NCBI GenBank assembly: GCA_012026655.1
Contig: JAAILG010000504.1
Coordinates: 1-64,000, forward strand
DNA: 64,000 nt
Source of the DNA: Hydrolagus affinis
Lineage: Eukaryota
Direction: 5' to 3'
This document shows positions 738 to 47,700 of this stretch, piece by piece. The position numbers and the translations under genes are program-made. Position 1 is the stretch's first letter. Each line of letters begins with the position of its first letter. Below the pieces are notes generated by a model. That model saw only the letters and a list, made by a program, of their open reading frames with translations. It made no database searches and had not been told where the DNA came from.

Positions 738-3700
738 ATGATACATCTTTGTTTGGATTGTGACAAAACATCAGTTTTGCTGAGTTGTTTGGACTTTGCC
801 TCTGAGATATCCCTGAAGACGATAATCTTTGTTAGTTGTGCTGAGGAAGTGGACCATGTGTTCAAAGTAGGTATTAGTGCAGATAAAATCCTTCCATCTC
901 TGCTTGTTTTTTCTTATATGAGTATATTTAGAATAATTTAATGTGAATTAATTGAGTTACATAATTATGGTGGGTTCCTTTTCTTGTACAGTAGTTAGTG
1001 CCTCTACAAAAAATGCTTAGTGCACCATTCTGTTTTTGTTCACTCAATGCAATTGTGTAAATTGTGTTGAAATAATTGGAGCTCCTGCGGCTCAGTGGTT
1101 AGAGCACTTGTCTTGCAAGATGGGGAGACCTATGTTCGAATCCAGGCAGATCTGGGCGAAACCTTGGGCCAGTTTCCTTACTACACACGTCTAATAATAA
1201 TCCCTTCAAAAAAAAACACAATAATAAAATTGGTCATTTCAATCCATGACTGTTTGTGGGACACTGCTGTGTGCAATTGGCTGCTGCGATTTGCCCACAA
1301 ATAATTCAAGTAAAGTCAATTCACCATACAGTATATTCTGTGAAGCACTTTGGGACATTGATAAAATGTGAAAAGCGCTATATCAAATGCAAGGATTATT
1401 ATTATTGTGCTTCTTTGCAAATTATCGGGACAGAAAAATTAAGGTTTATCTCACTCCATTTATTTATGATGTTGACAAAGTACTTTATTAAGGACAATTA
1501 ACCTTAATTGTTAAGGTTAAGAATTAAAAATAATTGTTTTAAGATTAATTATTGCATTTAACATAGTGCCAGTTATGTTAAAATTAATTGCTGCCAAGAG
1601 TAATCGCTATGTGTTTGTAGTCAGACACAGCAGCCAATTTGCATACAGCAAGGTCCCACAAAGTGATTGGAGTCATGAAGTGATTATTAACTTGTTAAAT
1701 AAACTAAATTTTTTGGAATAGTGTAATTAAATGCATGATGGCAGTAATATATTAAATTTTTGCAAGAATTATTTTAGTAAGAGAAAAATATGTTCATGAA
1801 TGCAATCAACCACAGTGCCTCCTGTCCTGCCTTTCAACATATGTTTCCTTGTTTGCTTTAGCTAATAAATAAAAAATAATGGAATATATATGTTAACCCT
1901 AGAGAGAACTAATCTAAAAATAAGAATCAAATTAACTTCTTGAACAACTTTCTCATAACTTTTATTTTAGGCTTTGGACAGTAACTCAAATTTCTGTATG
2001 AAGATCCATGGGGCACAGAAATTTCAGTTTAGCAATACTGCAGATCAGTGGAATAAGGAATTCAGTCCTGGCACACATGTAATATTGGGTGAGCATTTTA
2101 ACACTTGAATTTTAGATGTGCACAGGAAAATGTTCTTTTAATATATATGCTAAATCCAATTCTTACTGCAACAACAACTTGCATTTGCATAGCATATAAT
2201 GGCATTTTCATTAGTTGCTCATTTCTACAAAGAAGGATTGGTATTTGACCATTTGATATAGTCAAACATTGCTAGTGATCCAAGTAGCTCCGGATACCAT
2301 CACATGATACTTTTGTATTAATTGGTGCACTATAAATAACACAAAGTTAAGAGAATTCAGAAAACCTAATTTAAATATGAATTTGCTTGACAGTTATGAC
2401 TGATGAATGCATTCAGGCCTTAGGAATCACAGATGCCACCTGTGTAGTCCATTATGGTTTCCCCTCTTCTTGGAAGGCATTTGGAGCTCGTCTGTGTTGC
2501 ATGGTTGACAATTTTGAGAATTGTATTGTGGAGGTAAGTAATGAGTTGTGTCATTTGTGGGCAAGGGTTCTTTGTTGATGAAAAAGATCCAGGGGATCAT
2601 TATCTGATTTTTTTTAACCACAGCTGAATTATTTATGGCCATGTGTATATAGTTTGGTTTACATATTTACATATCCTATAAACTCTAAATTAAATGTTTT
2701 TTTTGTGTGTATTACATTTGTTTCTACTGACTAGAGGACAATAGGACAATTTTCCTTACTCCACATTCCCTTTGTTTACCTCGCAAAAAGTAGGAACCTG
2801 GTTGTTAGGCAATTGGCAAATCACTTTTCCGCAGGTAATGAATGATTCCTTTTAAAAAAAAGATTGGTCACTCAATCCACGACTGTTGGTGGGATACTGC
2901 TTTCTCCCATAAAATATACAGTCAATTTACTTTACAGTATAATCTGTGAAGCGTTTTGAAATGTCTTGAAGACGTGATAAGCCACTATATCAAAATGCAA
3001 GAATGATTGTTATTCAGCACAAATGAAGCTCTGTTGTAACACTAACACAAATAAAACAAAACTCTTACCACCAGGGATTAACTCCTCAAAGCCAATCAAT
3101 TGCACTGATGACTGATAAAAATGCACATCAGGCAGCTGCTATTCTGAACTACTTAGAAAGAACAAAGGCTACGATTCCTACAGAATTGTATGAATTTATT
3201 GCTGGTTTGAACAACAAAGACACTTATGAGAAATCTTTATGTAAATACCTGAAGATGCAAGGAATATGCAGGTATGTAGAATTACCGATGTTTGTTCAGT
3301 AGGGTTGAAATTGTGAAACCACAACAAATTGCATTTATTTAGTGCCTGTCATGTCAGGGGGGTGTTCCAAAGTACTGTTTTAATATATTAGTATATTAAT
3401 GTTGCTTTCTGTAAGGATTCATGCAACAATGAACTAACACTAGTTGTGTAGATTGAAATTTATTCTTTTAACATTCCGTGAATAGTCGGTTTATATTTGT
3501 ATTATGTGTTAATAGGAATAGAAAATGTTGTAGTGATCGTCATCAACTTCACCCAGTTATAGATAAACCACGATGTCTTACCTTTGAAAATAGATTACCA
3601 TCAACGGGATATGTTGAGGTAAAATTGCCTTTATGTGTTTCCTGAGAATGAGTTTACTTTTAATGTTTTACTTATATTTTTGTCATTTTTCTGTAGTAGT

Positions 3701-6700
3701 AGGATGTTCTAGAATCTGCTGAATATGGCATGTGTGAGTGGTAAAACTGGAAAATGCTGGCTTTGTTTAATGTTAATCTTTTGCTGTGACTTTTCATCCA
3801 AATTGTTAGCCTTTGTACCTCCTTTTATCCTGATGGATCTGCTCTGCATTTTTATTTCCTATGTCAGTTGTGTTAATCATTTGATCTGGATTTTTATTTA
3901 GAAAATAACAACTATATAAATTTATGAGCGGCACCTCTCTGTACACAGCAAAAGATGATTGAGTGAACAACACAAAGTCAATAACATTTCAGATGATAAG
4001 CAAGTGTAGATTGAAGCAAATTATTTTATTTTCTGATGGTTGGCCAGTGCTTATTTCTGAATGTGTGGAGAATACCTTTCTTCGAAAAATTAAGATTCTC
4101 TCAATTAGGTACTTTTGAAGGGGATGGAATAGGTTATTTTTCTCACATCTGGTAAATTGAAATTTGTCTAGATTATTCCAATGTGTGTCAAAGAGGCTTC
4201 CCGTTATTTTGGACGAATAATAAGTCACAGAAAGAAGTGGCAGAACACCCCAGTTTCAATGGAGGAGGGATATCTGAAGATGTTGAAAGACCTGACTGAC
4301 TTCTTTGCAGATAAGAATCACAGACAACCAGCTAAACAACTGCAACTGTCTGCTCTTTATGGATTTGAGGACAGCACATATAACAGGTAAAAAGAGGCCT
4401 CTTTTGCAGCTATCAGCAAGACTCACTAACAGTAAAGAAACCTAATAAACATGTAGCAGATTAGGTTCTAAGAGGTGTTTTTCATTTTGGTATTTTGTAA
4501 ATATGTACTAGGAAAGCATGTGAAAAATAAGTAAATTGGTGCAATTTCATAAACTGTATAAACATTAATGTTTGTTAATGACATTTATTGAAAGAATTCT
4601 ATCAACATTATGTAAATAATTTGGCATTTTCCTCCCTGCCCTCAATCAATGGATTTCTGCCAATAAACTGAAAAAGTCCATTTGAACTGACCCTATTTGC
4701 CCACAGATTACATAGTCAATCCACTTTACAGTGAATCCTAAGGCAGTTTGTGTTTCTTTCTCTAGCCAGTTAAATGTAACTAGGATACAAACCAAATTTG
4801 AAGTTCAGGTTTTATCCTTTCCACGAATGACATGCATTTATAAATAATCCTTTAAACTTCAGAGATAGATATGAATGAGCTGTAAACCAAATTCACTTGT
4901 CTGATCTGTAGATCGGAATAAATTAGGTGATCTAAACCCACTTTTGATCACAGTATGGTCATTCTCTGCTGAGTGGTGTCCATGTGGATATCAGGTAAGG
5001 ATAGGATCAGACTGGCATAGAATCATAGAATCCTATGGCACAAAAGGAGGCCATTCAGCCCATCGAGTCTGTGCCAGCTCTTTAAAAAAAAGAGCAATTT
5101 AATCCCACTCCCCAGCTCTCTCCCCATAACCTTGCAAACCCGTCCTCCCCAAATAAATGTCTACCTCTCTATTAAAAGTTGTTACCTTTTCAGGCAATGC
5201 ATTCCAGATTCGAACAACTCGCTGAGTGAAAAAATTTCTCACCTCCCCTCTGCTTCTTTTTGAAACTATTTTAAATCTGTGACTACGAGTCACTGATTCG
5301 CCCACCAGTGGAAACAGGTTTTCCCTATCTACTCTGTCGAATCCCCACATGAACTTAAAAACCTCTATTAGGTCTCCTTGCAAATCTTCTGTGTTCCAAT
5401 GAGAATAAGCCTAGCCTCTCTAGCCTTTCCTCATAGCTGAAGTCCCTGACATCATGTCCATTGTTTGAATTATCCTCTAATGCTTATTGACTCAACTCCT
5501 TAACACCAACAATGCTTACACATATTTAGCACCTTCCATGCAGGATGTTGTCTCAGAGTGGCAGATCTTAATAGTGCGGAGCCTGACTCCTTAGTGAAGA
5601 ATGCCCACCCGAGTGAAGAAAAGAAAATCTAAAGACCTTGTTGAATTCTACTCCAGCAGGAATTATTATTGTCACACTGGGAGAGGTGAAGAAAACTTCA
5701 GTAGCATTTTTCTGTTGTGTTTTAAAGGGTGCAGTTAATATCATTGCCAAAGAAAGTGGACAGTGCAGCTTTCAACAATGTAGAAGTGAAGTATATCGAC
5801 AGTGGTCAAATGGCAATAGTCAGAGAGAACCAGCTGCTCCAGCTTCCTGCACACTTTCAGCTTTTGCCAACACAGGCTGTGGAATTTGTTTTATGTAGAG
5901 TGAAACCTATTGACAATGAAATGGATTGGAATCCACAGGTAAGCAGTGAAAGTTTAAAGAATACAGTAAAAGTCTGTTTATCCGTGACCCGAAAAACCAT
6001 AACTTCCGTATAACCGGCACCTCAAAAAAAAGGTCCCCATTCAATTAACCAGATCTTATCTGGCACAATTGCTGTGGTCCATTTAATGAGTCGATTGTTG
6101 CACTAGAGTACAGTATGATTAGTTCTGAATGCTGCCGGTAGTGCATTTCCGGTTTTGGGTCATAAAGGGGCACTGTTTTTCCTCCTTTTTCTCTCACTCC
6201 CTCTCTTTCCTTCCTCTTTATCTCTCCCTCGCTCTTTCTATCTCTTCCCCTTTCTTTCCCTCTCTCTCTGACGGATATTACATATTGTCTGTGTAGGCTG
6301 ACGATATCGTGGGTTTATACACTATTTTGGTGGGGGTGGGATGGGAGAAGGAGAGAGAGGCAGGGAGAGAAAGAGGGTGGGGGGGTGGGGGGGGAAGAAG
6401 GGGAGGGAAAAAGGATGGGAGGAGAAAAAGAGAGTGGGAGGGGAGAGAGAGAGGGGGTGAGTTGATTAATTTAGATGGAAAATGAGAGGAGTGGAGAGGG
6501 GTTGGGTTTGGAGCCATTGGGATACCAGACTGACTGAGTGTGTGTGTGAAAGAGAGAGAGAGGGAGAGGGAAGGAGGGAGAGAAAGAAAGGAAAAAACGG
6601 CAGTACAGCTTTAAGCCACTGCAGTCTGCCATTGTAGAAGTTTGCTTTGTGATTGTGTGCTGTGTTTATAGACTATAATCGATATTTATTGCTTTATTGT

Positions 6701-7913
6701 TAAGTATCCATACAATATTCTGTTATTATTTAGTCTATTATTAATATGGTATGTTTAAAAAATGTTAATTACTTTTTTTTAAAGTTATTTTTTTGTGTGT
6801 TGGGTTTTCGGCAGTTGGCCACCCGAATATCCTGCAGGCGGTTTAACTGGCATTTTCCAGGTCCCGAGGGTGCCGGATAAACAAGCTTTACTGTACTTGT
6901 TTTCTGATACTTGCAAGATTAATCATTTTTACTTCATTCCCATTAATTTCTGTTTTTGTGACACAGGAAAATCTTTTCTATTTGTTTTGTGTTATTATTG
7001 TTATTATTAACCAAAACTTAATGTCTGATTTTAAAAAGATTTCGAGATCTATCAAACAAAAAATCACTGGTAAACTACATGAAGCTAAAATTGTTCTTGC
7101 TGTTGGTAACACACTATGGCTGGATCCTGTGGTGAGCTGCTTGCTTTATCATTTACAATATTAATCTTCTGACTTGAATAAAGTGCTAAATATGTAAGAT
7201 TTTGTTATTTAATGTGTGTGGACTTTCTCTTTTGTATCTTAAGTTAGAACATTTTAACTGGCGATGTTGAATATATTGCAATATTAGAGAATTTCTATTC
7301 TTGTGGAACTTGTTTTTTTTCTTCAAATATTAAAAATAGGTCGCTTTAAAATGTAGAATTCTATATGCATTAAGAGTATACTGTTGTGTAGTTCTGAGGT
7401 ACCATATTTTTGTATATAATGCAATCCCAAACCAAATATTTATCAGCATGTTGTTATAACAACTTGTCTGTGTTACTAAGGTCCGTGTAATTAAGCTGGC
7501 GGATCTGAAAACTACAATAACTGAATATAACGTTCGCTCAGAGATCATGAACTCTGGATTTGGAACTGATAATCCAGAGCACATTGGAAAGCTAAAGTCA
7601 CTTTACGAGAGAGTGGATCCCAGTTTATCCAATGAGGATTCTCCCCAGAAGGAGTAGGTTGCTATGAAATTAACGCAACATTACAGTGTATTAGTTTCTA
7701 CACCATAAATCTTAATTTTAATTTTTTTTAATGTTAATCAATGGCATTAAAAATACATTTTTAAACCTGTGTAATTAATACATTTGTGAGGTCAACTCTG
7801 CTTTTAACTTTCCCCTCCCACTCAATTTATTCTGCAATATTAGGTCCCATCTGTAACACCTCATCACGAAAATGATCATGAAACCTTGAAACCTGTTTTT
7901 TGTTATTTTCTAC

Positions 7914-7944
<31 letters not shown>

Positions 7945-10900
7945 GCTCTGTGTTTTATGGAATAAAATTTATTTTCATTTCTTCATATTCTTTAACTCTG
8001 GTTGTGTCCAGCAACTTACTGTGAAATGTAGCCAAGATCAGAAACTCACTAGATAGGAGAAATTGTTGGATCAGAAATTCATCTTATTATCAGAGTGATG
8101 TAAACTTGACCTCCCCTACATTCATGTGAATTTTAAAAACACCAGATTCTGCAAATACAATTGTTAACTTGGCTGCCTCAATTTAGTTGGTTTACATTAT
8201 GTTCAAGGAAGTTATGAAATTAAACTTACTGCAGATGTTTTTTTTTTACAGACTCAACAGAAGAGAGCTAAAATTTGCTGTTCTGGAGGATAATGGAAAT
8301 TACCATTCAGTCATTATATCTGAATTTACCAACCCACACGACTTTTATGTACAACTTGTAGCAACTCAGAAAAAGTAAACAAATCTATGTTGTTGCAGAA
8401 ATGTGTTATTTCAAGTATTTAAATGTATTATATAGATTATGTTTTCTAAATTTCAACAACTGTTTTTGTTGCTAAATAGACTGTGTACTTTGGAGGATGA
8501 GATTAACCAAACTGCTATAGAAAAAGAGGAATTTATTTCACCAGCTGTTGGTGATTTGTGTTTGGCACTCAGTGGAACTGAGAAGAGGTAACTAATGTGT
8601 CTTATTGTCAGTATTTCCCCCCAAACTCTCCTTCCCTTTCCTCCCTTTACTGGGTGCATGGATATAAATCTTACACTGGACACTATACTGCCCTGGTCAA
8701 ACTCTCTAAACATCTGTGATCAGGGCTCTCTCTGCCTCCTTGATCCATCTGTTGCTTTCGACACTGTCGACCATTCCAGGGCTCTGTCCTTGGCCCCCTA
8801 TGCTTCAATATCTACATGCTCCCCATTGGTGTCGCAGACATGGGGTTAACTTCCACATGTATGCAGATGACACCCAATTCTATCTTTCTGCCTTGACCGT
8901 CGATTCCAGGACCACTGCTGCTCTGACAGACTTCCTGTCAGACATCAAATCCTGGATGAGAGCTAACTTTCTACCGCAGCTTACTGTGGAGACTCCAGCT
9001 CGGATCTGAAACATTGATTGTCCAGCGCCTTGGGACATCCTCCTCACATGAAAGGCGCTGTACAAATGTAATTTTGTTATTGTTAATCCTTTACTTTTCT
9101 GTATCAGTGCCTCTTTTGGTAACCCTTTTCATCTTTCACATTTTTTTAAAAAAATCGGAGGTGTTATAGAGGAAAGATCTTGTCATCTGCTGATACCAAA
9201 GGAGAATATCAGGTGTTCAATATGGATTCTGGGTCTTGCAATTGGGTTTCCCTGAACAAAATTAAACATTTTCCCAAAGCAGATTTTAACCTTCCTTTTC
9301 AGGTCAGTTCAATTGTTTAACTCAAATGTAAATTGAGTACCTGTACTGTAGATCGATTTTGAAAATGGTAACTTGAATTCTAACATTGGGTAAATATAAA
9401 ATAAACTTTCAATCATGAACATCTTTACCAACAATTCTCAATAGGATAAGAATTCTGGTGCCTTTTGACACAAAGTTTTAAATTGGCTAATTATTGAAAA
9501 TGTATATTTATTAATCAACTACAAATTCGCTTTTTTTTCAACTATTTTCTGCTATTTTGGAAAGTATTATGTTTAGCTATATAGGATAATATGTAGGTTT
9601 GGGAAAATGATTAGTAAAAACTATACCTGTTTTATATTGCAGGCAATCTGGTGTTCTCTGTATGGAATAGAGCATGTGGGAGAAAGCTGGGAGCTGGAGA
9701 CTAACAAAGCCATGCAGATCACCTTTAAGGGCAAGGAACTTCAAGCTAAAGTTATCAAACAAAGTAAAAATGCTGAAAGTGAGTTAATATTAATTGACAA
9801 CACCCACACTTTTGTTTTTTAAATTCTGATTAGACTAAAGTGTTTTTCAACTTAACCGTAAAATTGCTTGCTCAATATTCAAATAGTTGCAAAATGTGCA
9901 GATTTTCTTGACTTCAAGGGGGGGAAAAAATATATATTTTTAAATGGTCTTAATGGCATATGGTAATACTTAAGTTTGTAATAAAAGAATGAATATTGTA
10001 CTAAACAGCTGCACATGTCCTAGTTTTAACTTTTGATTGGATAAGTCCTGAAATTGATAGTGTAGCAAACTGCAATAATTTTTTTTCAATAAAATAATGA
10101 ATGATGTTATTAATGCATGTCTTAAGGCTTTTTAAAAATCCTTTTGTAGCTTGTGCAGTGTGTTACCATGTGGATATACAAGATCTTTCTAATGCAAGTT
10201 TTGTGAAGCTATCAGAATGGATTATTTCTAAAGGACATGGTCGAGGGATTCCTACAACTTTAAATCAGCTATTCCCTGAAGCAGCAAATAGTCAAAGCAA
10301 CTCGGTTGCAGGCCTGTGTTCTTCAGTCTATGCTCTTTTAGGCGATAAAAATTGTAAGTGCATATATGAATGTCAAATTGATAAAATACCTTTGATGCTA
10401 ATTTTAAGAGCTGAATAAATGTGAAAATTTTATTTTAAAGCCTCCTCATTAAGGGGAACAATAGTGGAAGAGATAAAAAACAAAGTGCTGCAATACCCGG
10501 TGGATTATACGTCAGAATTGGGTGATATGCGCTACATGTGTAGGCTGCTGAGATTCTTGCATGCACCAAAAGAACAAGCTGATTTAGTAGCTGCTATAAC
10601 ATATATGGCAAAGCTGAATATAAGGTGAGCCTATGTATGAGCCTATGCAGAACAAGGTTTAATTGATTGCACAATGCGGGTTTTGCATTGCAGTAACACA
10701 AGATGGCAGTAAAGTTGCAGTATAATTCTGCCAAACTCATGCTGAGTGTTAGACGATTGTGTGTTTATGTAGAGCTGAGCTTGTGGTCGAAGAGAAAAAG
10801 AGCATAAAACTTGTAAAAAATATATATTTTTAAATCCATTGGGAAAGTCAATTCAAAAGTTTCTCCTGCTTTAGCCTTTATCAGCTATACAGGCAGATTC

Positions 10901-13900
10901 ACTCTGAACTGGATATCGGTCTGTGGACATTTTCTTTGATAATTTTACATAGGTGCCTAGGAAAATTAAGCCCTACTTTCAGAGGTTAATAGATAATTGA
11001 TCAATACCTATTTACAAATTTTAAATCATTTTGATGCCTAGAAATTCATGGTTTTCTACTAGCCTGAAATGTAATTAATCCAATACAATCTTGCACTTAA
11101 ATGTTTTTGCTACATTGTAATTTCTAAATTTTTTAATATAATATTAAAATTAGGAGACTTTCATTTCAGAAAACTTGATGAAATCATAGAAGAAAAGGGA
11201 ATTTACACCCTTGTGAACCTTCTTCACGGTGAGACAGAGTCAATTTATGTTTAACAACAACAACTTGTATTTATATAGCGCTCTCCTTGCCAGTCGGCGT
11301 CTCACAGCGCTTCACAATGCTGGAGCCCAAGGCCAAGCCAGGAGGAGAGGGAAGGTGACCGTAAGTGCGGTCGAAGAGAAAGTTCTTCAGTTGCGACCTG
11401 AAGATAGGAAAGGAGGGGGTGAGGCAAGGGGGTTGAGGGAGGGAGCTGCAAAGTTTTGGGGGTTAGTGGCTGAAAGCATGGCCACCAATGGTGTAGTAGA
11501 GGATTTGGGAGATAAGGAGGCCAAATCCGTAATGGATACTGCTGTAAAGAGAGTAGAGGTTAGAGAGGTAAGGGGGTGCAGGGGAGTGGATGGATTTAAA
11601 CATGAATGAGGAATTTAATCTTTAAAATTTTATGTAAATATCTATTCACCCTCTTCAGAGCTTTATTCAATGTTATAATTTAAATTTGACAGGAAAGTGC
11701 TGATTGAACACATTTTCATATGATTTTTCCCTTGGCTTTAGGGGCAACTGATGCAATGTTACAAGAATCTATTTGTATTGCACTTGGGATTCTAACAGAA
11801 AACAGTGAATTGCGCTCAGCTATTGCTGACACTGATGTATTGAAACACTTATGTTGGTTATTAAAAACACCAGCTAAAGATAAAATATGGGAAGCTGCTG
11901 TTGGAACATTGGCTGCACTTCTTTTCTCAGACAGGTATAAAGAACGACTGTTGGTACTGTGCTAATAGAATAATAATTAAAAGGCTTTAAAATTATGAAA
12001 CAAAATCATCTTGCCTCAACACAGTTAGGACTATTTTTTTTTAAATTATGCAAACAAAAAACTTACCTTGATATTCTTCCTCCCGATTCCATACTGAGTG
12101 TGGAACTGTATTGTCAAATATTTTCAGACTACAGTATATTTATCTATATAATCTAACACAAGAGGGAGAATTTATTTCAAAAGATAAGCTTCCATTAGAG
12201 CAGGAAGTCGTTATAACAATAATAAGTCATTGAGTTCTCTGAAGTTCTCTTTTTGTGCTCTTTTAACTAGTAATTTTTTTTCTTGTTGCCATCTAAACAT
12301 TTGCTTCTAAGAATTGAGCTGCACAGTACACTATCTTTACAACTAGTACAAGAAAGCAAATTGTTTTCCCATCCCTACATCCACATAGAAAGAAGTATAA
12401 TTATTCTTACCTACAGGTTAATAAGTGGCATAAAAGCTATTTTTTAACCAAAGTTCTAAAGATAGCAGAGCCATATGCAGTATTTGCCTATTATTTGGTG
12501 TTTTTTCAGCAGCTTATCTCAAATGATTTTCTGAGAGTGTCATTCATTATTTATATTTTATATTTGGGAATTAGGGGAATTAATGTTAACATTATACTGT
12601 AATTTGACAATGATTTTCTAACACCATATGCTATTTCATGCACATATTTATACATGTACTAAGCCTAGTACTTTCGCAGGGCTTGTACAGAGGTTGAAGA
12701 CCAACAGATTATTGGGCATCTTTGCACAAAGCTTCATGAATCTGCGACAGGAGAGGTATAATCAGACTGTTCAACTGTACTAAACTTGTGAATTATAAGC
12801 ATTGTTCAAGTTTCTAAAACTTGTGTCTTGTATGAGTTCTGTGCTGTATGACAATTTAGTGTGTTCCATTCATGACCTAAATTGTAGTGGCATTATAGTT
12901 TAATGCATCTCAATGTATTTAATTCAAAAATACAGCATGAAATTTTTAAAAATCCTAGTTCATAACTAGTCACAGAGTGTAATTTAAGTTAAAACTTATT
13001 CTTAGGTTTTGGAAAATCTTCTGAGAACCTTGTGTCATCTGAGTGGTAAACCACAGAATTTGAACTTGATGCTGGCAAGTGAACTTAATTTGACTGTTGA
13101 CTGGTATGTATTGCAACAGTCACAAAAAATGTAAGTGATTTTTACTGTAGACATTCTATAAACCAAGGAAAATATAGTAAAATAAATTAGATGTAACACG
13201 TTGTGCATTAATTGTAACTAAGTAAACTCCATTAAAATGTAACTATTAAACAATGCTTTCTTCAATATTTTTAGGCTTTTATCAAGTAAACCTTGCCAGG
13301 ATGTTTCATCCACACTCATGAGTAATTTGAAATTTTCTCTGGCAAGTTTAAATTCTGCACAGCAGTACCTGGAAAATGATACAGCCCTCAATCAAGAAAA
13401 TTCTGGTATGACTTTACAAGAATGTGATTATGTTATAACTGTAATGTAGTTTAATTTCTGGTAGATTTTTGAAACAGTGTATATCTTACCAATAGATATG
13501 GCATTAGTAGTGCTAATTACATCTACATCTTTACTGTTTTATTTAAACAACTGCGTTATTCACATTTGGCTGTGCTCACCTCTAAGTTGTAAATTTGAAA
13601 GTACTTTTAATAGTCTAAGACTTGGTGGCCAACCTTTTTGGAAACTAAATACAAGTTCTTTGAATGCAAAATAGGAAAGTATTTGTACCTATATCTTTGC
13701 TATTTGGTAGCTGTTTGAAAAGGCCTTCACTGGCATTTTATTTCCTGCATATTTAAGTAAAAGATATTTTATAATGTGAGCCAAAGTTATTTGTAACGAT
13801 GATTGGTGAATTCTAATAATAATGTTTCCATTTGTTAATACGCTTTTCACATCTTCTAGACGTCTCAAAGCACTTTGCAGAATATACTATAAAGTGAACT

Positions 13901-16843
13901 GACTGTATTTGTGGGCGAAATGCGGCAGCCAGTTGCACACAGCCATGTCCCACAAAGAGTCATGGATTAAAATGACCAGTTTTATTATTCTGTATTTTAT
14001 GGAGGGATTATTATTAGGCGTGTGGAGTAAGAAAACTTGCTTAAGGTTTTGCTCTCACCTGCATGGATTCGAACACAGTTCTCACGCTTGTATGGCGAGT
14101 ACTCTAACCACTGAGCTACTGGACTCCACAAGAAGTAGCTGATTAAAAAAATCGGAGCTTTTTAAAATAAAACAGGTGTTGATAGCAGAGCATCAATACT
14201 GAATACATCCATGATAGTTACAGAAAGACATCACTGGAAACTAGTCTTTCATCCTCTTAATTTCATAAATAAATCTGTTAGATTCAAATTTATAATTGAA
14301 TCTGTCAAGTTATTCTCCTCTTTCCCGAAAATGTTACTGGAATAAATGTGATCAGTTTACATATGTACATTTTCTCCTTCATTTTCTGAACAGGTATTAT
14401 GGATGCCACTAGAAAGAGGACTAGCCAATCAAGTATGGATCACAAGAGGTCATCCTTTATACTTAAATGTTAATACGTTATAATCATTGTTGCAATCTAC
14501 AAGTATCAAGCTTGTTCACTAAGCTTATTGGACAGTCTGTTTAAATTTGATGTCTTTGATATATTTTTGCAGTTTTCACCCTAAAATAACCTGGTTTCAA
14601 AAAGAAGATTGTCTTGTTTTAAATATCAAGCTACGAAATTTTGCGCAACATGTTTGTGAATTCAGTAGATACAGACTGGTGTTCAGGTGAGGTTGAAGAG
14701 GTATTGAATTACGTATGCAGAATTGTATTTCTGGTTACATTTTTGACCGATAATATTTTTGACACCAAATATTTAAATTGTAGTGCCTTTGTTGGTGACA
14801 AATTGTACCTAGCAGATTTGGAACTTCAAGGCTGTATTTTAGAAGACAAATGCACATGTGTCATTAGAAGTGAAGAGCCTGTCATAACATTGTGCAAAGA
14901 AGAAAAAGGTGCATGGAAGAGTCTGCTAACATCAAAGGTAATTGTAGTGAAATAATTCAGTTGTCTTCTTTGCTGTCATATACAGAATCATGATCGTTTA
15001 CAAATTTTACACAAGCATTCAATTCTAAATTGATTTCCCATTCCTATTAGTGCAATAGAACCTCACTAATCCAGTCACACAAGGACCTGGGCAAAAGTGA
15101 CTTACTTCATCGAATTATACAGCACAGGAGGAGGCCATTTGGCCCAACGTATCTGCTAGCTCTTTTAAAAGAGCTATGCAAATCAATCTTGTACATTCCT
15201 ATAGCTCAGTGGTTAGAGCACTTGCCTTGCAAGCGAGAGACCTGGGTTCAATTCCAACCTTGGCCAAGTTTCCTTACTCCGCACGCCTGATAATACCTTG
15301 AGAAAAAAATAATAAATTGGTCATTTCAATCCACGACTGTTTGTGAGACACTGCTGTATGCAATTGGCTGCCGCGATTCACCCACAAATATACAGTCAAT
15401 ATAACTTTGTAAAGCGCTTTGAGACATCTAGAAGACGTGAAAAGCGCTATATCAAATACAAGGATTATTATTGATCCCTTTCCCCCGTTCTCTCCCCATA
15501 ACCCAGGAAACATGTCCTTCCCAACTTACTTCCTACTTCGTGAGGTGACCTGATTACTGAAACAAAAGGTGGTTCAGGTCACTGACGTAATGTTAAAGGG
15601 CATTGGTAATTGGCAAGGGTGATCAACATTCAACAACCATAATTTGCAATCTCATTAAAATAACGCTATTGTCACATCTAAAACAAAAGCTGTCATGTAT
15701 TCAGCCTACCTTTTGAGAATGCGTCCCACTTGTGTTCTGTCAATGGCATAGATCACAGCTAACTGTCTATGACTTGCCCTCACTTGTTTTTGATTAAGTC
15801 CACTCTCACGTAAGGACAACTCCTTCTGGGATGCCTGTTTGCAACACTTGTCAACAGTCACTAAATCAAAACAATGCACAGACAAGCCCTGTGCTCTGAA
15901 TACAGTACTTACCAAGAATTGGCCGCAGTAGCTCAAGTTAAGCCGCGGAAGCCGGACAAGGTTGAATTTCAACTCTAGCCGCTTCCACGATCCCACGTGA
16001 CCGGAGCCCACAGTAGCAGCTTTGGGGAAACAGCACAAGAAGCCAGAGGCCTAGCTCTCTGTGTACTGTACAGGTTGGTAGAGGACAAGGGTGTTTGTAC
16101 TGCATTTTTTAAGGGCAGGAGATGAAAATGTATTGAGCAGGGACTGCAAAATAGGGAAAACAATTCTTGTATTTCTGTATAATTGAATTCCAAGTCTCAA
16201 GAACTGAGATAATATAAAAAGCAATAAATGGTTTTAATTTCTGTTTTCATCTGTTACTTTTCTTCAGAATCCAAATGTCACTTTTGATTTTAATTATTTT
16301 GAGGATTTGTCTGATGAATCGTTTCTTCCAATATTTAAAGGTAAGATGTGATTTAATTACCACTTCTGTCCAGAATAAAACTTTCTTCACAATTCATTTT
16401 TCCAACGGCATGTCAATTCTTGATTTGTAATCCACATTAAAAGTACTATTTTTCCTCCTCCCAGAACTTGAAACCTAATATTTACAGAAACTGTACATCT
16501 AATAAAGTAGAGCCATGTTATAGTGCAGATTTGCTTATAGAGCAATTGGTGCAGTTACAACAAATCTAAAATAATCATGCTTCCCTCCCCTACCCCGTTC
16601 TCAGTTCGGGTCTGAAGCAGTAACTGTCCAGCGCCTTGGGACGTCCTCCTGACGTGAAAGGCGCTATACAAATGTGATTTTGTTGTTGTTATTTGAACTT
16701 TAAAACTTACAAAAATAACTGCTTGTTTTTCTAATTAATTATTAACAGACACTTGGAAAGGGTCCCAGACCATGATAGAACCTTCTGTTGATGAATGGGG
16801 CTGCATTACCAGTAGTAGTGACAGTTCTGAAGAAGATTACTAA
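738..16843 (+). CDS. TDRD12: Tudor domain-containing protein 12 (piRNA pathway DEAD-box-like helicase/Tudor/CS protein), 5'-partial, 25 exons in window
   Basis: GT-AG exons with consistent phases: 738-866, 1971-2088, 2394-2533, 3075-3271, 3516-3618, 4172-4386, 5728-5938, 7039-7131, 7481-7653, 8252-8374, 8480-8587, 9161-9302, 9643-9778, 10150-10353, 10441-10624, 11170-11228, 11742-11934, 12680-12755, 13006-13103, 13275-13405, 14394-14448, 14573-14686, 14784-14937, 16268-16340, 16749-16843 (TAA). Recognisable TDRD12 peptides: [32 protein letters not shown] (helicase C-terminus), [33 protein letters not shown], and CS domain [12 protein letters not shown]...[16 protein letters not shown]...NPNVTFDF. 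Adjacent to SLC7A9 and CEP89 as in other vertebrates. Confidence 0.93.
1077..1406 (+). mobile_element. tRNA-derived SINE with Deu-like core and L2-like tail (family A, full length)
   Basis: A-box GGCTCAGTGG, B-box GTTCGAATCC, core TGTTTGTGGGACACTGCTGTGTGCAATTGGCTGC, tail GTGAAAAGCGCTATATCAAATGCAAG(ATT)n. More than 12 related copies in the window. Confidence 0.85.
2745..3013 (+). mobile_element. SINE, long variant of family A, 5'-truncated
   Basis: Shares the core and tail with family A, plus the extra AGTAGGAACC...GTTAG segment also seen at 21269-21640 and 41250-41505. Confidence 0.7.
5020..5450 (-). mobile_element. CR1 LINE 3' end
   Basis: [20 protein letters not shown]...[16 protein letters not shown] is the CR1 ORF2 C-terminus. 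Terminal (CATAGAAT) repeats. A closely similar copy lies at 34540-34965. Confidence 0.9.
5964..6893. mobile_element. non-autonomous Tc1/mariner-superfamily (Tigger/pogo-like) DNA transposon
   Basis: Imperfect TIRs CAGTAAAAGTCTGTTTATCCG ... CGGATAAACAAGCTTTACTG, flanked by TA on both sides (5962-63, 6894-95). Confidence 0.75.
7914..7940 (+). repeat. (CT)n microsatellite
   Basis: about 13 CT units. Confidence 0.9.
8620..9085 (+). mobile_element. L2 LINE fragment (RT remnant plus 3' tail)
   Basis: Peptides [13 protein letters not shown] and [17 protein letters not shown] (RT YADD motif). Tail CAGCGCCTTGGGACATCCTCC..GAAAGGCGCTGTACAAATGTAATTTTG. Confidence 0.85.
11250..11620 (-). mobile_element. 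L2 LINE 3' fragment
   Basis: (AAC)n plus TTGTATTTATATAGCGC tail on the reverse strand. Similar to 26565-26990 and 34060-34300. Confidence 0.7.
13814..14130 (-). mobile_element. SINE family A, full length
   Basis: Reverse complement of the 1077-1406 element, with A/B boxes at 14065-14125. Confidence 0.85.
15110..15520. mobile_element. CR1 3'-end fragment (-) split by a family-A SINE (+, 15196-15472)
   Basis: GGAGGCCATTTGGCCC...AGAGC before the SINE and CCCCCGTTCTCTCCCCATAACC after it continue the CR1 end seen at 5040-5135. Confidence 0.7.
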
Positions 16844-18408: not shown

Positions 18409-21400
18409 TTACTGTTTCTCCTCTGCTGGTGCTACTTGCATAAACAGCTGCATATGTTTGGTGATGGGTACTGGAAAGAAGAAAATGTCATTTTTTCAGC
18501 AGAACAATTAGCTAATAATTAAGGGTATAGCATAACAGATGGATTTTACATGTATGTTTCTAACAATATTTTGAACTGGTTTGCCAACAGTTGTCTCAAG
18601 AGCAGGGAAGTATATTCATCCCCTCCAGTATTATTGGTTCCCACTGCTAGAGCCAGGTGGAATCAGGAACAATTAAATCCAAATGTTCCATTTTAAACCA
18701 TCATTTACATCTTGTAAATTGAACCAGATCAGCTCAATTTGGAATTATTGATGAAGTTCAAAACTCCCTGTCACCAGATCATGAGAGGATCTCAGATGAG
18801 GCTGTAGGGCCCATTTGATCTCATCCACCCACCCCCCCTCCCATTGGAGCATCGGGTTGTGTTTTCAATGAGCCCAGTGTTCTGGCCTCAGCTATCTTTT
18901 CTGGTAATTTCTTTCTGTATTTTAGTTACCCTTGGGTATAGAATTGCTTACTTGTGGCTGACCTGAAATTACCATATGCCACCCTAAATCTTGCAATTGA
19001 GTATATTTCTGAAGATCTAAACTCTAGTGTTTTGGCAGTGTCACCCAATATTCTGTTTCACAACTACACAAGGAACATGAATCCCAGTAAAGACCCATGT
19101 GTATACCTCACGTAATGCATTCCTATATCTTGACCTAGCTTCCCTAATGACTACCCACTGTTTCTTTCCCTTTGGCCAATTTCGAATCCATATCCATGCC
19201 TTTCCCTTAATATCCAGTGGCATCAGTTTGCGAAGGTGTCTTTCACATCTTGGTTCAAACAGTAATTCAGACAATAAAAAAAATGTCTTCTTACTCATCA
19301 ATTTGCGAGTCCAGCTGAAGCGCATGTGAATAAATAGGAAGTAGACTACTAGTCCTCCTAAAATAAAGATTGTGCAGTACAGGTATGCCATTTCTGGCTG
19401 TTCAATAATTGGAGCTAAAACCAAGTAGATGCTGAGAATAGTCACAATAATTGGTATAATTACGGGAACCTGAAACAAGAAAAAAAAACATTTTAATAGG
19501 TGAAGAGCACGCACAACTTTGACAAATCAAATCCTAAGAAGCTGTGCTGTATATGTATGTAAGTTTTTACTCAAACTATACAGGAAAATGATTACTGTTT
19601 TCTGGAAGTTACTTTTAATTCTAAAAGCAGAACAAACTCCTATTGGGATAATAATAATAATAGATGAGGTATTACAGTTCCTGCAAAACAGATTTTTATT
19701 GTAATGAATAAGTAGAATTATCAACCATGTATTTATACCGTATGGGAAAGAAATAATTGATGCCAACATATCTAACCTTAACTGGTCTTATCAGATCTTT
19801 TCTTGCAAATTGCATGTAAATTAGTGAAACGGCAGTCAGTCCATAAAAAATCCAGACTGCAAAACTGAAATAGTTTATAAGAGTGTTGATATCTCCTGGA
19901 ATGATGTAGATAATAGCTAGAATTCCCTGAAAAAATAAATCACATTGTTATACAATACATACTTGGTACAAATTTTACAGTTTCAGAACATTGTGATTGT
20001 AAAAATGGTAGTGGATTTGTATCATCAGTTGTGGGTTATACCTACCTACCTCTAACCCTAGAATGACCACATATGTGAATCTTACAAGGCAAAACATGAA
20101 TAACTTACATTGAAAATGAGAGCTGGTGCAGGTGTCAAGCGCTTAACGTTGATGTAGGCCAGAATCTTAATCATATGACCCTCACGGGCAGTGACGTATG
20201 TAAGTCTGTTAACAAGAAATCAAAATAGTTGCCTAAATGCACAATTGTTTTGAGGTCAATTATGAATTGATCATGATGAAATAAAACACTTTTACAAAAG
20301 AATATGCTACATAAGCAGCTAGCAGTGGAAGACATTGATGTATGACTAATAAAAAGGGTTTTGCCTACATTTGCCAATAAGAAATTTCTAATCTTAGCAA
20401 CATAAAAAATTATGAAATAAAAGTCATGCCCTTGATCATGTTATTAGCAGGATTCCAATTAAAAGTAAGGTAAATAATCACCTTGCGCTGTTTTCTTTTT
20501 TCATTTCTTAGAAGTTGGACTGACAACAACAACAAAATTACATTTTTAGAGAAACTTTCACGTTGGGAGGATGCATATCCTTCACACGGGGCTGGTAGAA
20601 GATTGCTTACAAATTACCACTGAACAAGAATAGTTTGTGGCATAGTAAAGATGAAGAAAGAAGCGATACTGGTTTTGTTTAATTTACCTGCCAGCTGTGA
20701 AACAGCTACCATTGGCAGCTCCAAAGGTAGAAAACACAACAAAGAGAGGAACAATCCAAGATGCTGGTCCAAGTACCCGGTCACCAAATGTCTGTGTTTA
20801 GAGAAATACAAACAACTATGTGGTTGAATACATGCTTTATATGTAATAGTTGTAGACTCACATATTTTCTTTTGCCTATATATGTCAATTTAAGTTTGTG
20901 GATAGAACTTTTAGCTTTCTAAACTTTCTCAATAGGAACCTCTGTGGTGCCTTTACCAATCTGACAGTACAATAGTTATATAGTCCACAAAACCAGAAAT
21001 CGCTGGGAACACTCAGCAGGTCAGGCAGCATCTATGAAGAAAGGAAAAGTGAGTCAACGTTTTGGGTCCACTACCCTTTGTCAGAACTGACGAAGGGTCG
21101 TGGACCTGAAATGTTGACTCATTTTCCTTTCACCATAGATGCTGCCTGACCTGCTGAGTGTTCCCAGCGATTTCTGGTTTTGTTTCAGATTTCCAGCATC
21201 TGCATTATTTTTCGTTTTAGTTTTACAGTCAAACCTGTTTTCAATAACCCTTCAGAGAACTGGACTAAATAATAATAATCCTTGCATTTGATATAATGCC
21301 TTATCGCGTCTTCAGGACACCTCAAAGCACTTCACGGAATATACTATAAAGTTAATTTGACTTCTATATTTTGTGGGTGAAACGTGGCAGCCAATTGTGC

Positions 21401-24400
21401 ACAGCCACGTTTTTCTCCACAAATAGTCATGAATTGAGTGACCAAATTATTATTTAGAAGGATTATTACCCCTGGAAATGATCCGCCAATCGACTAACAA
21501 CTGGGTTCCTACTTACTGCTAAGTAAACTGAGGCGTATAGAGTAAGGAAACTTGCCAAAGGTTTTGGCCTGCCCAGAAATCGAACGCAGGTCCTCTTGTA
21601 TATGAGGTGAGTGTTCGAACCAATACACTACCTGTAGCTACCTTAACACCAGGGCTTAAAAAAAAGGGTGACCACTGGTTTGTGAGATAGGTGATTGCTG
21701 AATAGAAAATCGGTCAGTAATGCTCTAGGGCAGTTGGTATAACACGTTTGACTGTATTTAATGTGTGAGCAGTGGAGAGCTACTTACCACTGCAACAGCA
21801 GGAGATTGCAACAGTTCTGATGGAGTCATGACTGTGAAATATGCAATATTAACCAAGATATAGCAAACGGTCACCAAAGGAATGCCGATGATGATGGCGA
21901 GTGGAAGATTTCTGTCAAACACAGAAAATTAGGTCCTATTAGGAATAGTTTAAAGTGTAAAGCTTTGACAAATATTTGCTGTTACTGTATTATCTACATA
22001 AGCTACAATTTCTTATTAAAAGTCTTAAAAAAACATAACGCTGGTAAGTTTTTTCCATAACATCAACTTAATTAAGGCAATTTACCAATCAGTAGTTATC
22101 CTAAACATAAGCATTCATCTTTCTGCAGATACCACAAAAACAGGGTCAAATAGAAGACAGACAACTCCAAATTCCAGCTTCTTATCTGCAACTAAAAATC
22201 AGCCAAATATCAGACCTGTTTCAGGTGTGCATCCAGACACCTTAAGTTCCTGGTCTGCGTGTGATAAATGAGTTGATCTCAACTACAGCACTATCAGATG
22301 CTGTTGATTTTTTACAAATGTTTTGTAACCATTTGTTCCACAAAATTTTTTTTAACTTAAACATTAAAAACTAGGACTTTACCTGTAGGGATTTTTCAGT
22401 TCTTCTGTAATGAAATTGAGCTGATTCCTGAAAAGGAAGGAATATTGATTCAGTAAGATTTGCATTGTCAAATCAGTTTGTACAGCAGATTATCTGATCA
22501 TTTTAAATACTTAACAATAATAATAATAATAATCATTGCATTTGATATTGCACCTTTCCTGTCTTTGAGGTGTCTCAAAGCATATGTGGGCAAAACTTAT
22601 TGAAATATACAATGCTGATATTCTTAATTGTCTCAAATTGAAAGGTAACACCAAATTTACTCATAACTTGAATCAACTATGTGAACTGTATGTTCAGTGG
22701 AATCACACAAAATCACGCAAACAGCCATCAACAAGATAAACTGCTCACCATCCATCATAAGCCCAAAGTCCACTGTAAAATCCCAAACCAATAGCACTAA
22801 AAGAGGTTTGAGCTCCGTCAAAGGAATTTTTAAAATTCTGTGTATTTCCTGTAAAAAGAAGAGTATTATAGTGAATAGATTAACCATATATAAACTGCTC
22901 CATGGAGGAACAGCCCTATTACTCCAAATAATACATATCTTTTGGGATAGACTTAACTAAATTAACATTAACTATTAAGATGGGGGGAGGGGGCATTATG
23001 ACTCATGTGAAGTAGTTAATGAGTTAACTTTAGTTAATGAGATTCAGGAACTATCCTGTCTTGACTGTTCAGCGCCTTGGGACGTCCTCCCGACATGAAA
23101 GGTGCTCTATAAATGTAATTTTGTTGTTGTTGTATCCTGTGCCCAGGTTCATTTCAATGAAAGTGCACTCAAGCCTTCACAGGACAATTACTAACATAAC
23201 TCCACATCTTCAAAAAAAACACACCAGTTAGTTGAAATGCTAAGCAGAATGCTGCTCAGCGGGGAAATTTAGGTGATTATTGTGGTTGACAAATCAATAA
23301 AACCCAATTATCAAAAATGTAAAGCCTAGTGGAATTTTGTCCAAAGATTTAAGGGATTCTTACTGTAAAAAAACTAAGCAAAATGAAATTTGTTTTTTTG
23401 GTTAGTGATAGATTCTGAGAAAGTTTCCCACTACTCTTAATAACACTAATAAGTAATTGACTGAGCTGCATGTGTACAGTGTGCTGCAACAAAGACACAA
23501 CCAGGTTTTGTTCTAAAATGTGATTAACTAGAAGAATATGGTTTAAAAACAAATATGTATTATTTATTTAATGTGATAGCTTGCAAAACCTACCTTGTGC
23601 TATTAAAACCAGGCCAGCTACAATGATGACAGCAACTATCGCCAGTTTGGCAACAGTGAAAATATTCTGGACAAAGCTAGCAAGCTTGACACTGAATGAG
23701 TTCACCAGTGTAATTAAAACTGCAATGAGGAAAAATAAAGTTATAAAGAGAATTGCCCTTTTAAAATGCAAACAACCAGAACAAACTAGTTAAGTTGAAT
23801 GGACTGTTTCTACCCTCTTAAAAATTGTGTATAATTTTAAGTAAATAATAGAAACGAGGATAAGCACAGCAAATATGACCTGTACTTTCACTGATATGGA
23901 TTTTTCAAAGTAGGATATCAATTTACAGTATTTTTAAATGTGAAATCTGAAGTGAGTATTAAATACAATAGTTTTCTTGCCTCAGTTGCGCTTGCGTGCA
24001 TGTCATAATGCAAGTTTAGAATACAATGTCAGCATTGATTGCTTAGAATTCATATAAATTGGTGCTCATCTTGTATCTTGATTATTATATTCCTTGAAAT
24101 ATGTGACATAATGATAATAATAATCCTTGCATTTGATATAGCGCTTTTCACATCTTCCAGACGTCTCAAAGAGCTTCACAGAATATACTGTAAAGTGAAT
24201 TGACTGTATATTTGTGGGCGAAACGCGGCAGCCAATTGCGAACAGCAGTGTCCCACAAACATTCGTGGATTGAAATGACCAATTTTTTGGGGGGGGATTA
24301 TTATTGGGCGTTTGGAGTAAGGAAACTTGCCCATGGTTTCGCCCTAACCACGAAACTACAGGACTTTTACAAGAGACTGGATATGTACAGTAACGTTGTT

Positions 24401-44735: not shown

Positions 44736-47700
44736 CTAGGAGTAGAAATCATGATCATTTTTTTCACTTTCATCAGAAGAGGCACTTTGTTGTTGATCAG
44801 AGTCAGACTCGAACATGGGACTCAGGACAATAGCTTCCCTCGACTTCTGCTTTCTTTGAGCAGTTGTACAATCTCCACTTTCAGCCACATGGTGAGGTAA
44901 AGGCTTGTCATTGTTTGACTGAACATAATCCCCATGTGGCCTAACATCCTCCAATCTTCTGGGGGAAGAGACAGTCACATCACAGTAGCTGAACGCTCTG
45001 AAGTCTGAACGGCGGCTGGCATACCTGTAAGGGTTTTCATCTATACCTGAGGCATAAAAGCCAGTGGGACCCAAGAGACTACTTTTAGTTAAAGTACCTC
45101 GCAAAAGATCCTTTATTTGCCGATTTTCTCGTGCGGTTGATTCCCAGACTGTCTCCAGTTCAGTCTCCACTTGCCTAGAAAACAGCAAATTAATTGCATT
45201 AGTTTCCTTGGACACTTAGATTGCTGGCAAGAGTTACATAATGATGTCACTTCTATCATTGGCATTTCCAATCTCCTGTGAAATGCTGCATGCTCACTAA
45301 AATTCTCCAATTACATTACAATTAACCATAATGAACTTTGAGGGTTGATGAAGAAGATCAAGATTTTCTTAAACACTCAACTGTGTGCTTCTTTAGCTAA
45401 TTTTAAAACTCTTTGTAGTATACCTGGCCAGGAGCATCACAATGGCTGTTCGGAGTCATGTGAATATATATATTCTCACTTTCTGATCACCAACTGAACA
45501 GGTCAATTGATGTCCTCAGTACTTTTGACAATCTGATGTATATGTTTGTGGTGAGAAATCTTTTATTAAAAAAAAGTACGAATCTAACATCTACAAATTC
45601 ATCCCAATAGATCATTAGGATAATAATTCCAACAATGTCAGCTGTGTGTATTCCATGGATATTGGGCATTTCCAGTTTAAAACTAGTTTCAACACAAAAT
45701 ATTTAAAAAATTCAACATAAACTGGCAATCTCATTTTCAATCAGAGTTTCTGTTTCACGGTCTGCAATTCTCCAGGACTGGATATAGTAACAGGAGGTTC
45801 AACGGTCACAAATAACTTCAATGGTGAGTTTTAAATCTGAAAATATTTTGCAACAGGATCCCTCAATAACCAGAAGTACATTTCATTGACTTATAAGGGT
45901 TCTGCTCCGAACTAGATACTGTCTAATCAGTTATTAACTCATTGGGCATGTCAATTAAAAAGACGTTACACTTTCATTGGGTATAGATAATGAAAATGTG
46001 ATTAGGCTTTTCATTAGTCTATAACTTCTGTTGTTCTTAAGCAATACACCACACTATTTTATTTTTCCTTTGAATTATTAAAGTACTGTAATTACACAAA
46101 CACATTATTTTGACAACCTTCAGTTTTGTTTTTAATAATTCTTCCGAAACTAAGATTTCGGTTCGCTGCAAGGTTATGTCTGAGAAATGTAATCTGAAAT
46201 GTGAACGTAGCTGGAGGTTTTTTTTGCTTTGTAAATGCCATCACAACCTATTAATGTCTCAGTATAGCGTTTTTGCCTTTTTCATTACAATTCTAGGTCA
46301 CAGAACTGGAAAGTCACGTGCCATGCATGGAAAAATGTTGTGAATAGTCACTTTGTTTTACACACATGAATTCAAACCGTGGTCGTTAATAAGCACATTT
46401 TCTTCAAGTATAAATGGAAATAATCCATTCAAACCCATGTTTCCCCACAATATAAAGTATTGCTAGTTCTGCGTTTCATTGGAACTGCATTATTCCTTTT
46501 TCCCCTGATTGGTTACAATGGCCTATCACCTCAGATGAGATGCAATCAAAGTTTCTGAGTGGAAATAATTGGGAGAAATGATGGTCTGTTTCGGCTGCAG
46601 GTCTACTGTGTAGAATGAGAGGGAGGTTTTCCTGGTACTACTGAGCGACTCTCTTGCAGTCTGTGGAGAATGCTAAACACAAGAAAATTGGATTACTTGC
46701 CTTGTTCCAAAAATCCAGATCATAATTACATCAGTAATTACTATTCTGCCTCCTCTAGAACAACAGCAACAATTAGATTTGTATAGCGCCTGACCAATCA
46801 AACCATCTGAGGCACTTCTATATGTTGCAGTAAGTGTTATTTACATTGTAATTTCAATGCATCACAATCACTTTTATTCTTTATTTTCAATTTAGGTATC
46901 AGTCTGTATTATGTGGAGGTGCTGACATGTGAAGAATGACAATTCTTAAGTAATTGTATTTTTAAGTGGTGGTACTTTTGAATTTGTTCCATCTGCTGCT
47001 GCTTGTTCTATCCGCTAAGTGCTCTTGAGTTGAAACTCATATTTACGTGATACTCAGCATATAATCAATAAAATGAACTTTCAGACTAAAAATCAATGGA
47101 AACTCAATCTTAACTGTAAACAGATCAGTGAAATAGGTGCACATTGCATACTAATTCTGTACAGCTTGTTTTTCAAAATGAAAATAATTTAAATTCTATA
47201 TAATTAAACCTAAATGTTTGATATTCTGTGACTGTTTCTTAATTTCCCTTCTCCACCACCAAACAACAACAACTTGCATTTATATAGTGAGTAGTGGTGT
47301 CCTGGAGCACTTTACAGTGGTGGAATCTGACCCTGAGGAGAGGTGACTGTAAGCTTGATGAGAAAGGAACATCTTTAGTTGGGATTTGAAAGTGGCACGT
47401 GAGAGGGAGCTGGTCCCATTGTTTGCCACTTCCAGAAATAAGAACACATTTCCTCACAACGCCCATCAAGTCCTCTGAACACCTAACCTTCTAGCCCTCT
47501 GCCTGCTATCCTCACTCACCATCCTCACTCTATCGCATCTCCCCCCCACCCCCCACCAAAATCATATATATAAAAAAATTTACAATAATTTGATCAATCA
47601 ATCCATGACTGTTTGTGGGACACTGCTGTGTGCAATTGGCTGCCACGTTTCACCCCAAAATATACAGTCAATTCACTTTACAGAATATTCTGTGAAGTGC

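Follow-up and report, generated by a model that had tools for sequence, protein, structure and literature searches.

TDRD12 is a helicase that silences transposons in the germline and is essential to secondary piRNA biogenesis and fertility. The window, i.e., the whole 64,000-nucleotide stretch analyzed here, comprises positions 1–64,000 of the forward strand of contig JAAILG010000504.1 from Hydrolagus affinis (GCA_012026655.1), and all coordinates refer to it. The C-terminal half of the helicase, together with exons of TDRD12 that resemble a Cys/His zinc finger, lies at 738–3618 on the plus strand (tblastn with Callorhinchus milii TDRD12, boundaries approximate), followed by the extended Tudor (eTudor) 2, here T2, at 4172–7653 (+; exons 4172–4386, 5728–5938, 7039–7131, and 7481–7653, the final one ending in phase 2), whose own cage is degenerate. 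Then come a further eTudor, T3 (8252–10353, +), an armadillo-type (ARM) helical solenoid (10441–13405, +; exons 10441–10624, 11170–11228, 11742–11934, 12680–12755, 13006–13103, and 13275–13405), a short linker exon (14394–14448, +), and, at 14573–16843 (+), the CS domain exons (14573–14686 and 14784–14937; the Pfam CS match is weak on C. milii) with an acidic tail (16268–16340 and 16749–16843) that ends in the stop codon TAA. Tudor 1 (T1) and the N-terminal half of the DEAD domain are outside the window; T1 is present in C. milii TDRD12. The TDRD12/SoYb family is recognized by a DEAD-like helicase, then an eTudor, then a C-terminal CS domain, and this order was found here, the helicase, T2, and CS being orthologous to those of mouse, human, and zebrafish TDRD12 and of Drosophila SoYb. 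Our splice model of 4172–16843 joins 20 GT-AG exons into 878 amino acids, its sole stop being the terminal one, and is 87% identical to residues 862–1735 of C. milii TDRD12; the match of the window's TDRD12 protein is 85% to C. milii and 65–69% to sharks and rays.

Downstream of TDRD12 and tail-to-tail with it are minus-strand exons of SLC7A9 (b0,+AT; 19041–21930), one of which matches human b0,+AT with an E value of 1.5e-18; we take the same TDRD12–SLC7A9 adjacency to exist in human. A 159-amino acid open frame at 44736–45215 (−) has no Pfam match and is, if human synteny is assumed, possibly a CEP89 exon. After an assembly gap of 100 N (52417–52516), a single-frame RING-finger gene lies at 54257–55036 (+), with a hydrophobic C-terminal stretch and a zf-RING_5 match of 28.2 bits, presumably resembling the RNF182 type.

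Between T2 and the CS domain sit the 12 exons of 8252–14448, which add up to 1509 nt, i.e., exactly the 503 codons that the original prediction had given approximately. Both ends of this block, which the linker exon closes, are in intron phase 2, so that it is phase-symmetric. The first five exons had been predicted to encode a full eTudor/SN layout, and this holds: the quoted motifs are all in place, the exons have GT-AG ends, and they splice in frame. Exon 1 (8252–8374, +; phase 2-2) encodes the N-terminal SN-like strands; exon 2 (8480–8587, +), a helix and the first Tudor strand, with Ser (codon 8571) at cage position 1; exon 3 (9161–9302, +), the Tudor core, with Tyr, Asn, and Ser at cage positions 2–4 and Ser at the Asn site; exon 4 (9643–9778, +), the C-terminal SN-like half; and exon 5 (10150–10353, +), the rest of that half plus a conserved junction to the helical block. 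The acceptor preceding 9161, at 9160, is purine-rich and atypical. The introns of the block also contain high-copy interspersed repeats with very high read depth (~8670–9084, 11253–11510, and 13841–14140), one of which ends ~75 nt upstream of this acceptor.

Transcription of the block was judged from three raw-read runs of one sample from a relative (its organism code differs from that of the DNA) in the same study, aligned at 85% likeness. After six of 30 bins were dropped as repeat-dominated, depth on the strand expected of a plus-strand mRNA tracks the exon share of the remaining 24 with a Spearman coefficient of 0.96, and four of the six intron-only bins have zero depth. Exon-normalized depth is 7.3–12.3 in seven T3 bins, 10.1 on the final T2 exon, and 11.7–12.4 on CS. 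The T3-ARM exons are thus expressed in a relative, judging from exon-restricted depth in one sample. Please note that this evidence consists of depth, which is low, and that junction reads are not part of it.

In a Pfam scan of 14 exon-sized pieces, only 9162–9302 passes the TUDOR (PF00567) cut-off of 23 bits, with 27.3 bits, and TUDOR matches of any strength occur in three, i.e., this piece, 8253–8372 in T3 exon 1 (a weak 14 bits), and a T2 exon. Three TUDOR stretches are found in 5/5 chondrichthyan TDRD12 proteins and two in 2/2 bird proteins, and the best stretch of C. milii TDRD12 covers residues 1101–1218. The T3 match is not due to chance, and a third eTudor following T2, with the N-terminal Tudor outside the window, is borne out by the scan and by the three stretches of C. 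milii. Pfam Arm gives 28.8 bits on C. milii and 18.6 bits, below the cut-off, on one exon of the window. The ARM family of ARMC5 (PF24768) was considered and rejected: it needs >79.9 bits, and the five chondrichthyan proteins reach only 30–36 bits, which we read as generic ARM resemblance.

For the fold, an AlphaFold2 model was built from T3-ARM of C. milii (475 amino acids, 33 sequences), whose T3 is 89% identical to that of the window and has the same pocket residues. The model has a pLDDT of 87.6 and a pTM of 0.83 across both domains. Residues 1–201 superpose on the TDRD1 eTudor 4b9w (Z 23.3, rmsd 2.2, 189 aligned), so that the predicted orthologue contains a Tudor barrel within an SN-like fold of ~190 amino acids, and residues 218–470 form stacked helical repeats superposing on the ARM repeats of β-catenin (Z 23.1, rmsd 3.3, 241 aligned). 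The best Foldseek rows for the modeled T3 are eTudors of TDRD1, TDRD2, Papi, and SND1; the ESM Atlas gave no usable match. T3 and ARM are thus predicted to adopt these folds and to pack as a single unit, and the pTM of 0.83 over two domains suggests, for the model, a fixed T3-ARM orientation. The residues at their junction are conserved from sharks through invertebrates. When T3-ARM was paired with the CS domain of the same protein, the predicted complex, run without using an alignment, scored 0.00 and gave no verdict either way.

The cage register was taken by sequence from the alignment with TDRD1 (5m9n) and from Krimper spacing. As far as the available text of PMC8249470 goes, the canonical sDMA cage, e.g., that of Krimper eTud2, consists of four aromatics plus Asn, and Krimper eTud1 accommodates unmethylated arginine with Asp at position 1, Phe at 4, and Glu at 5. 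The T3 cage of the window reads Ser (8571), Tyr (9165), Asn (9219), and Ser (9228), and its Asn site is occupied by Ser (9234); it has one of four aromatics, lacks the canonical set, and has none of the three Krimper eTud1 residues. The degenerate cage of the original prediction therefore stands, except that the Cys of its C-Y-R motif (TGT, 9162) is no cage residue and corresponds to the Trp position just before cage position 2. It is the sole non-Trp there among 19 chondrichthyan sequences and is one base from Trp, so that a substitution, an allele, and an error are all conceivable. All 19 chondrichthyan T3s have at most two of four aromatics (one in 3 sequences, two in 16), with Ser, Thr, or Ile at position 5 and Asn or an acid in 0/19. 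Among 73 invertebrate T3s, in contrast, 18 have four aromatics and 46 three or more, 64 have D/E at position 5, and 44 have an aromatic at position 4 together with an acid at either position 1 or position 5, the Krimper eTud1 solution, which is seen in 0/19 chondrichthyans. The median net charge of T3 per 100 amino acids is −6.4 in invertebrates versus −1.4 in chondrichthyans. T3 has an invariant Asp and Gly in its core motif, and the canonical Asn at position 5 occurs in 0/92 T3 sequences (73 invertebrate and 19 chondrichthyan).

T3 is not alone in having a degenerate cage. Read by eye, none of the aligned T1 (31) or T2 (35) sequences has a four-aromatic cage with Asn. What stands out instead is that the T3 cage, as aligned, often appears intact in invertebrates. 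Probably no Tudor of this protein reads sDMA, and T3 seems to be the one that lost such ability. The reader role of invertebrate T3 is one that we infer, since the canonical Asn is absent from all 92 T3s. With the Krimper-type pocket for unmethylated arginine missing as well (0/19), any binding by chondrichthyan T3 would likely use a non-cage surface.

The distribution of T3 was examined with phmmer, using a bird TDRD12 query against 1.84 billion representatives, which returned many orthologues of 1,800–2,400 amino acids; 30 names were looked up. Three TUDOR stretches and an ARM-type match (several below the Pfam cut-off) are present in Branchiostoma, Ptychodera, Antedon, Patiria, Mizuhopecten, Haliotis, Tubulanus, and Sinanodonta, and strong Arm matches accompany T2 and T3 in Priapulus and Owenia, so that T3-ARM lies at the equivalent place in an amphioxus, a hemichordate, echinoderms, molluscs, an annelid, a nemertean, and a priapulid. 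In the arthropods Homarus, Ornithodoros, Centruroides, Larinioides, Locusta, and Epargyreus, T3 is present and an ARM match is absent; T3 and ARM are therefore not obligatory partners. Counting non-vertebrate records with helicase, T2, and either ≥250 amino acids past T2 or a T3 match (23 short-tailed records, one of them a partial lamprey, being excluded), we found T3 in 73/79, and the six without it include three tunicates. T3 and ARM matches occur in 18/18 chondrichthyan records scanned with a profile built from these records. Among 139 bony-vertebrate records, an amniote-heavy set with isoforms included and some members assigned by tree, 119 have T2 and CS, and 1/119, a partial T3 of Latimeria, has T3; it is absent from the records of Amia, Lepisosteus, Engraulis, Spea, and Hyperolius. 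No match was identified as coming from a lungfish, bichir, sturgeon, or cnidarian. The Latimeria T3 core (record residues 1033–1190) is 35% identical and breaks off behind the Tudor core, at the phase-0 boundary that corresponds to 9302, with the second SN-like half missing; the ~30 residues that follow were aligned by MAFFT to a late ARM exon and were not recovered by BLAST. It may be either a decaying remnant with exon loss or an incomplete gene model.

Counting Tudors across orthologues, as had been proposed, thus gave three in chondrichthyans and many invertebrates and two in human, mouse, and birds. Human and mouse TDRD12 have two Tudor matches only, so that, as the original prediction required, mammals have no alignable domain at this position. 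Its notion of T3 as an additional domain is reversed by the same count, since T3 is shared with invertebrates and absent from nearly all bony-vertebrate records examined, i.e., ancestral and retained.

Homology, rather than mere likeness of layout, is indicated by profiles. On a profile built from 14 invertebrate T3-to-CS spacers, the window reaches 104 bits (E 1e-31) and C. milii 101, and no bony vertebrate or arthropod exceeds 12 bits. On the invertebrate domain profiles the window's T3 scores 133 bits as T3, 43 as T1, and 18 as T2, and 34 control Tudor domains from four multi-Tudor proteins score ≤111 bits on the T3 profile; chondrichthyan models had been used at first to set the limits of the profile regions, which makes for mild circularity. 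In a FastTree phylogeny of 115 domains, T1 (0.985) and T2 (1.0) each form a clade, and all 25 T3s fall together at 0.89, a moderate support, with two control domains inside (the controls did not contain TDRD1, TDRKH, TDRD6, or RNF17 domains). That T3 arose by duplication of T1 or T2 was rejected, as the T3s group apart from both. Given the collinear T3-ARM-CS order, vertical descent is the simple reading.

Taken together, T3 and ARM were likely part of TDRD12 in the bilaterian ancestor, were lost in bony vertebrates, and likely form a rigid Tudor-ARM scaffold rather than a methylarginine reader, a reading to which we assign a probability of roughly 0.6. The ancestry part is well supported and, by itself, very probable. 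The scaffold role we infer: a T3 stripped of its arginine pocket is likely to serve as a rigid scaffold rather than a methylarginine reader, and the "methylation-independent scaffold" of the original prediction seems plausible. Identity to C. milii, as high for T3 (89%) and ARM (87%) as for T2 (87%; CS, 93%), speaks for a function of the module. In invertebrates, T3 may be the PIWI-tail reader of TDRD12, with an aromatic cage plus Asp as in TDRKH; in jawed vertebrates, its pocket and acidic surface would have decayed with the fold retained, and the T3-ARM module may space T2 from CS, partners being bound via non-cage or ARM surfaces. The phase-symmetric exon block makes a clean deletion possible, i.e., once dispensable it could have been lost without a frameshift, and if the coelacanth remnant is real, it would have been deleted at least twice (in ray-finned fishes and in tetrapods).

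Alternatively, the module may be vestigial, an ancestral T3-ARM decaying under relaxed selection in cartilaginous fish as an intermediate toward the loss in bony vertebrates, which we regard as unlikely and yet the strongest competitor. The pocket does look as if lost stepwise, with two aromatics in sharks, one in chimaeras, and, in the window, Cys in place of Trp. Of the folded parts, T3 and ARM are conserved least when chimaera is compared with elasmobranchs (53–63% and 51–62% identity versus 61–67% for T2 and 67–70% for the helicase), and their identity is below that of the other domains across chondrichthyans. Gene models are partial in Mobula, Hemitrygon, and Cetorhinus, and T3 is truncated in Latimeria. 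Decay, however, sits poorly with 12 exons that remain open and spliceable, with T3 and ARM kept in 18/18 chondrichthyan records (by the profile built from them), with a T3-ARM identity to C. milii that equals that of T2, with a fold that is confidently predicted for the C. milii model, and with RNA that covers the T3-ARM exons like their neighbors. That chimaeras lost two further aromatics and the window the Trp, together with the lower T3/ARM identity, fits slow decay as well as it fits the scaffold.

It is less probable still that T3 docks the N-terminal arginines of PIWI proteins without methylation, in the manner of Krimper eTud1 or TDRKH, which would be the original prediction at its strongest. 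Incomplete cages can favor unmethylated arginine, according to the accessible part of PMC8249470, the core-motif Asp and Gly of T3 are invariant, and the modeled fold is nearest to the eTudors of TDRD1, TDRD2, and Papi; against this, the Krimper eTud1 solution, frequent in invertebrates (44/73), is missing from all 19 chondrichthyan T3s, and the domain is nearly neutral. A lineage-specific gain in cartilaginous fish, by duplication of a Tudor inside TDRD12 or by shuffling in with ARM repeats from another gene, is largely refuted and very improbable. It had been hinted at by a word-seeded search with T3-ARM, whose matches were chondrichthyan TDRD12s and generic multi-Tudor proteins only, and would agree with the phase-symmetric block, the tunicates without a T3 match, and the absence of T3 from human, mouse, and zebrafish TDRD12 and fly SoYb as described; it was overturned by the full HMMER search with the bird query. 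T3 and ARM occur in the same order, with sequence-level homology, in protostomes and invertebrate deuterostomes, T3 groups with neither T1 nor T2, and the coelacanth carries the 35% identical T3 core. That the T3-ARM exons lie outside the mRNA is hardly credible, for all the atypical acceptor at 9160 and RNA support by depth instead of junction reads, as the open splice model agrees with the RefSeq proteins of many sharks and rays and the depth is stranded and exon-restricted.

The scaffold reading can be set against known systems. Mouse and zebrafish TDRD12 are described with two Tudors, and SoYb as eTudor-helicase-eTudor-CS, with no ARM, in the available portions of PMC4932588, PMC5485951, and PMC12526068, respectively; the window gene differs by its 503 additional codons of T3 and ARM. 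The invertebrate TDRD12s (Branchiostoma, Patiria, Haliotis, Owenia, and Priapulus) have the same T2-T3-ARM-CS order, homologous at the sequence level, and their T3 often has three to four cage aromatics, Asp, and an acidic surface where the window T3 has one aromatic. The eTudors of TDRD1 (4b9w and 5m9n), TDRKH/TDRD2 (5j39), and Papi (5ygb) share the predicted T3 fold (Z 22–23) and have arginine-binding cages, with Asp at the Asn site of TDRKH in our alignment, in contrast to the window's S/Y/N/S+S, which is fused to an ARM block. A further comparison is with the cage-less eTudors of Krimper (eTud1), Vreteno, and Tejas: Krimper eTud1 has one aromatic left, as in the window T3, though its acidic pocket residues are absent here, and non-cage surfaces can bind partners, PMC12526068 noting, in the part available, that cage-less eTudors do so by diverse surfaces.

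For Bombyx, the accessible text of PMC4712191 describes Tdrd12 as having Tudors on both sides of the helicase, the "second tudor domain" being needed for Siwi association (citing Pandey 2013), and a TDRD12 complex with PIWI and EXD1 in mouse and Bombyx. In a butterfly, Epargyreus, the record scores 230 bits for T2 and 228 bits for T3 on invertebrate profiles that included it; Pfam reports T3 only, and related records outside the profile training show the same pair. The cage of Epargyreus is incomplete (Y/E/F/Q+E). We tentatively suggest, as a possibility that we consider rather doubtful, that ancestral TDRD12 was a three-Tudor plus ARM protein with T3 as its only PIWI-arginine reader, disabled and then deleted in vertebrates; that the Bombyx "second Tudor" may be or include T3, hence not the equivalent of mouse Tudor 2; and that mammalian TDRD12 reaches PIWI by another route. 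"Tudor 2" should not be equated between insects and mammals.

Our literature search, with subscription papers mostly outside its scope, came across no description of a third Tudor or an ARM block in TDRD12, although the supplements of PMC12526068 (Fig. S1C) and PMC4712191 (Fig. S6A) may show a third Tudor; PMC10711660 and PMC12925329, as far as available, served as context only. In one paper found for Tdrd12, the phrase "three Tudor domains" refers to TDRD7. T3 and ARM are already visible as automatic Pfam matches on RefSeq models, so that the novelty is the evolutionary reading and not a new kind of system. T3-ARM is more widespread than had been supposed, which changes the picture of how a core piRNA factor was built ancestrally: the mouse, zebrafish, and fly models (two Tudors, helicase, and CS) appear to be reduced forms, and the fuller form includes an ARM block for which we found no description, as well as the only Tudor whose pocket is often intact. 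The natural series of T3, i.e., intact, decayed, truncated, and lost, offers a way to test PIWI recruitment.

Two further groups of records differ in their tails. The three tunicate records (P0201, P0202, and P0198) have neither a T3 nor a CS match; the tail of Phallusia ends in a leucine-rich, helical-looking stretch, maybe a diverged ARM, with no score on the invertebrate ARM profile. Ten TDRD12-like proteins (P0220, P0224, P0227, P0235, P0236, P0244, P0256, P0263, P0270, and P0277) form a well-supported clade; they are mostly ~1,000 amino acids long and end directly past Tudor 2, a Yb-like layout.
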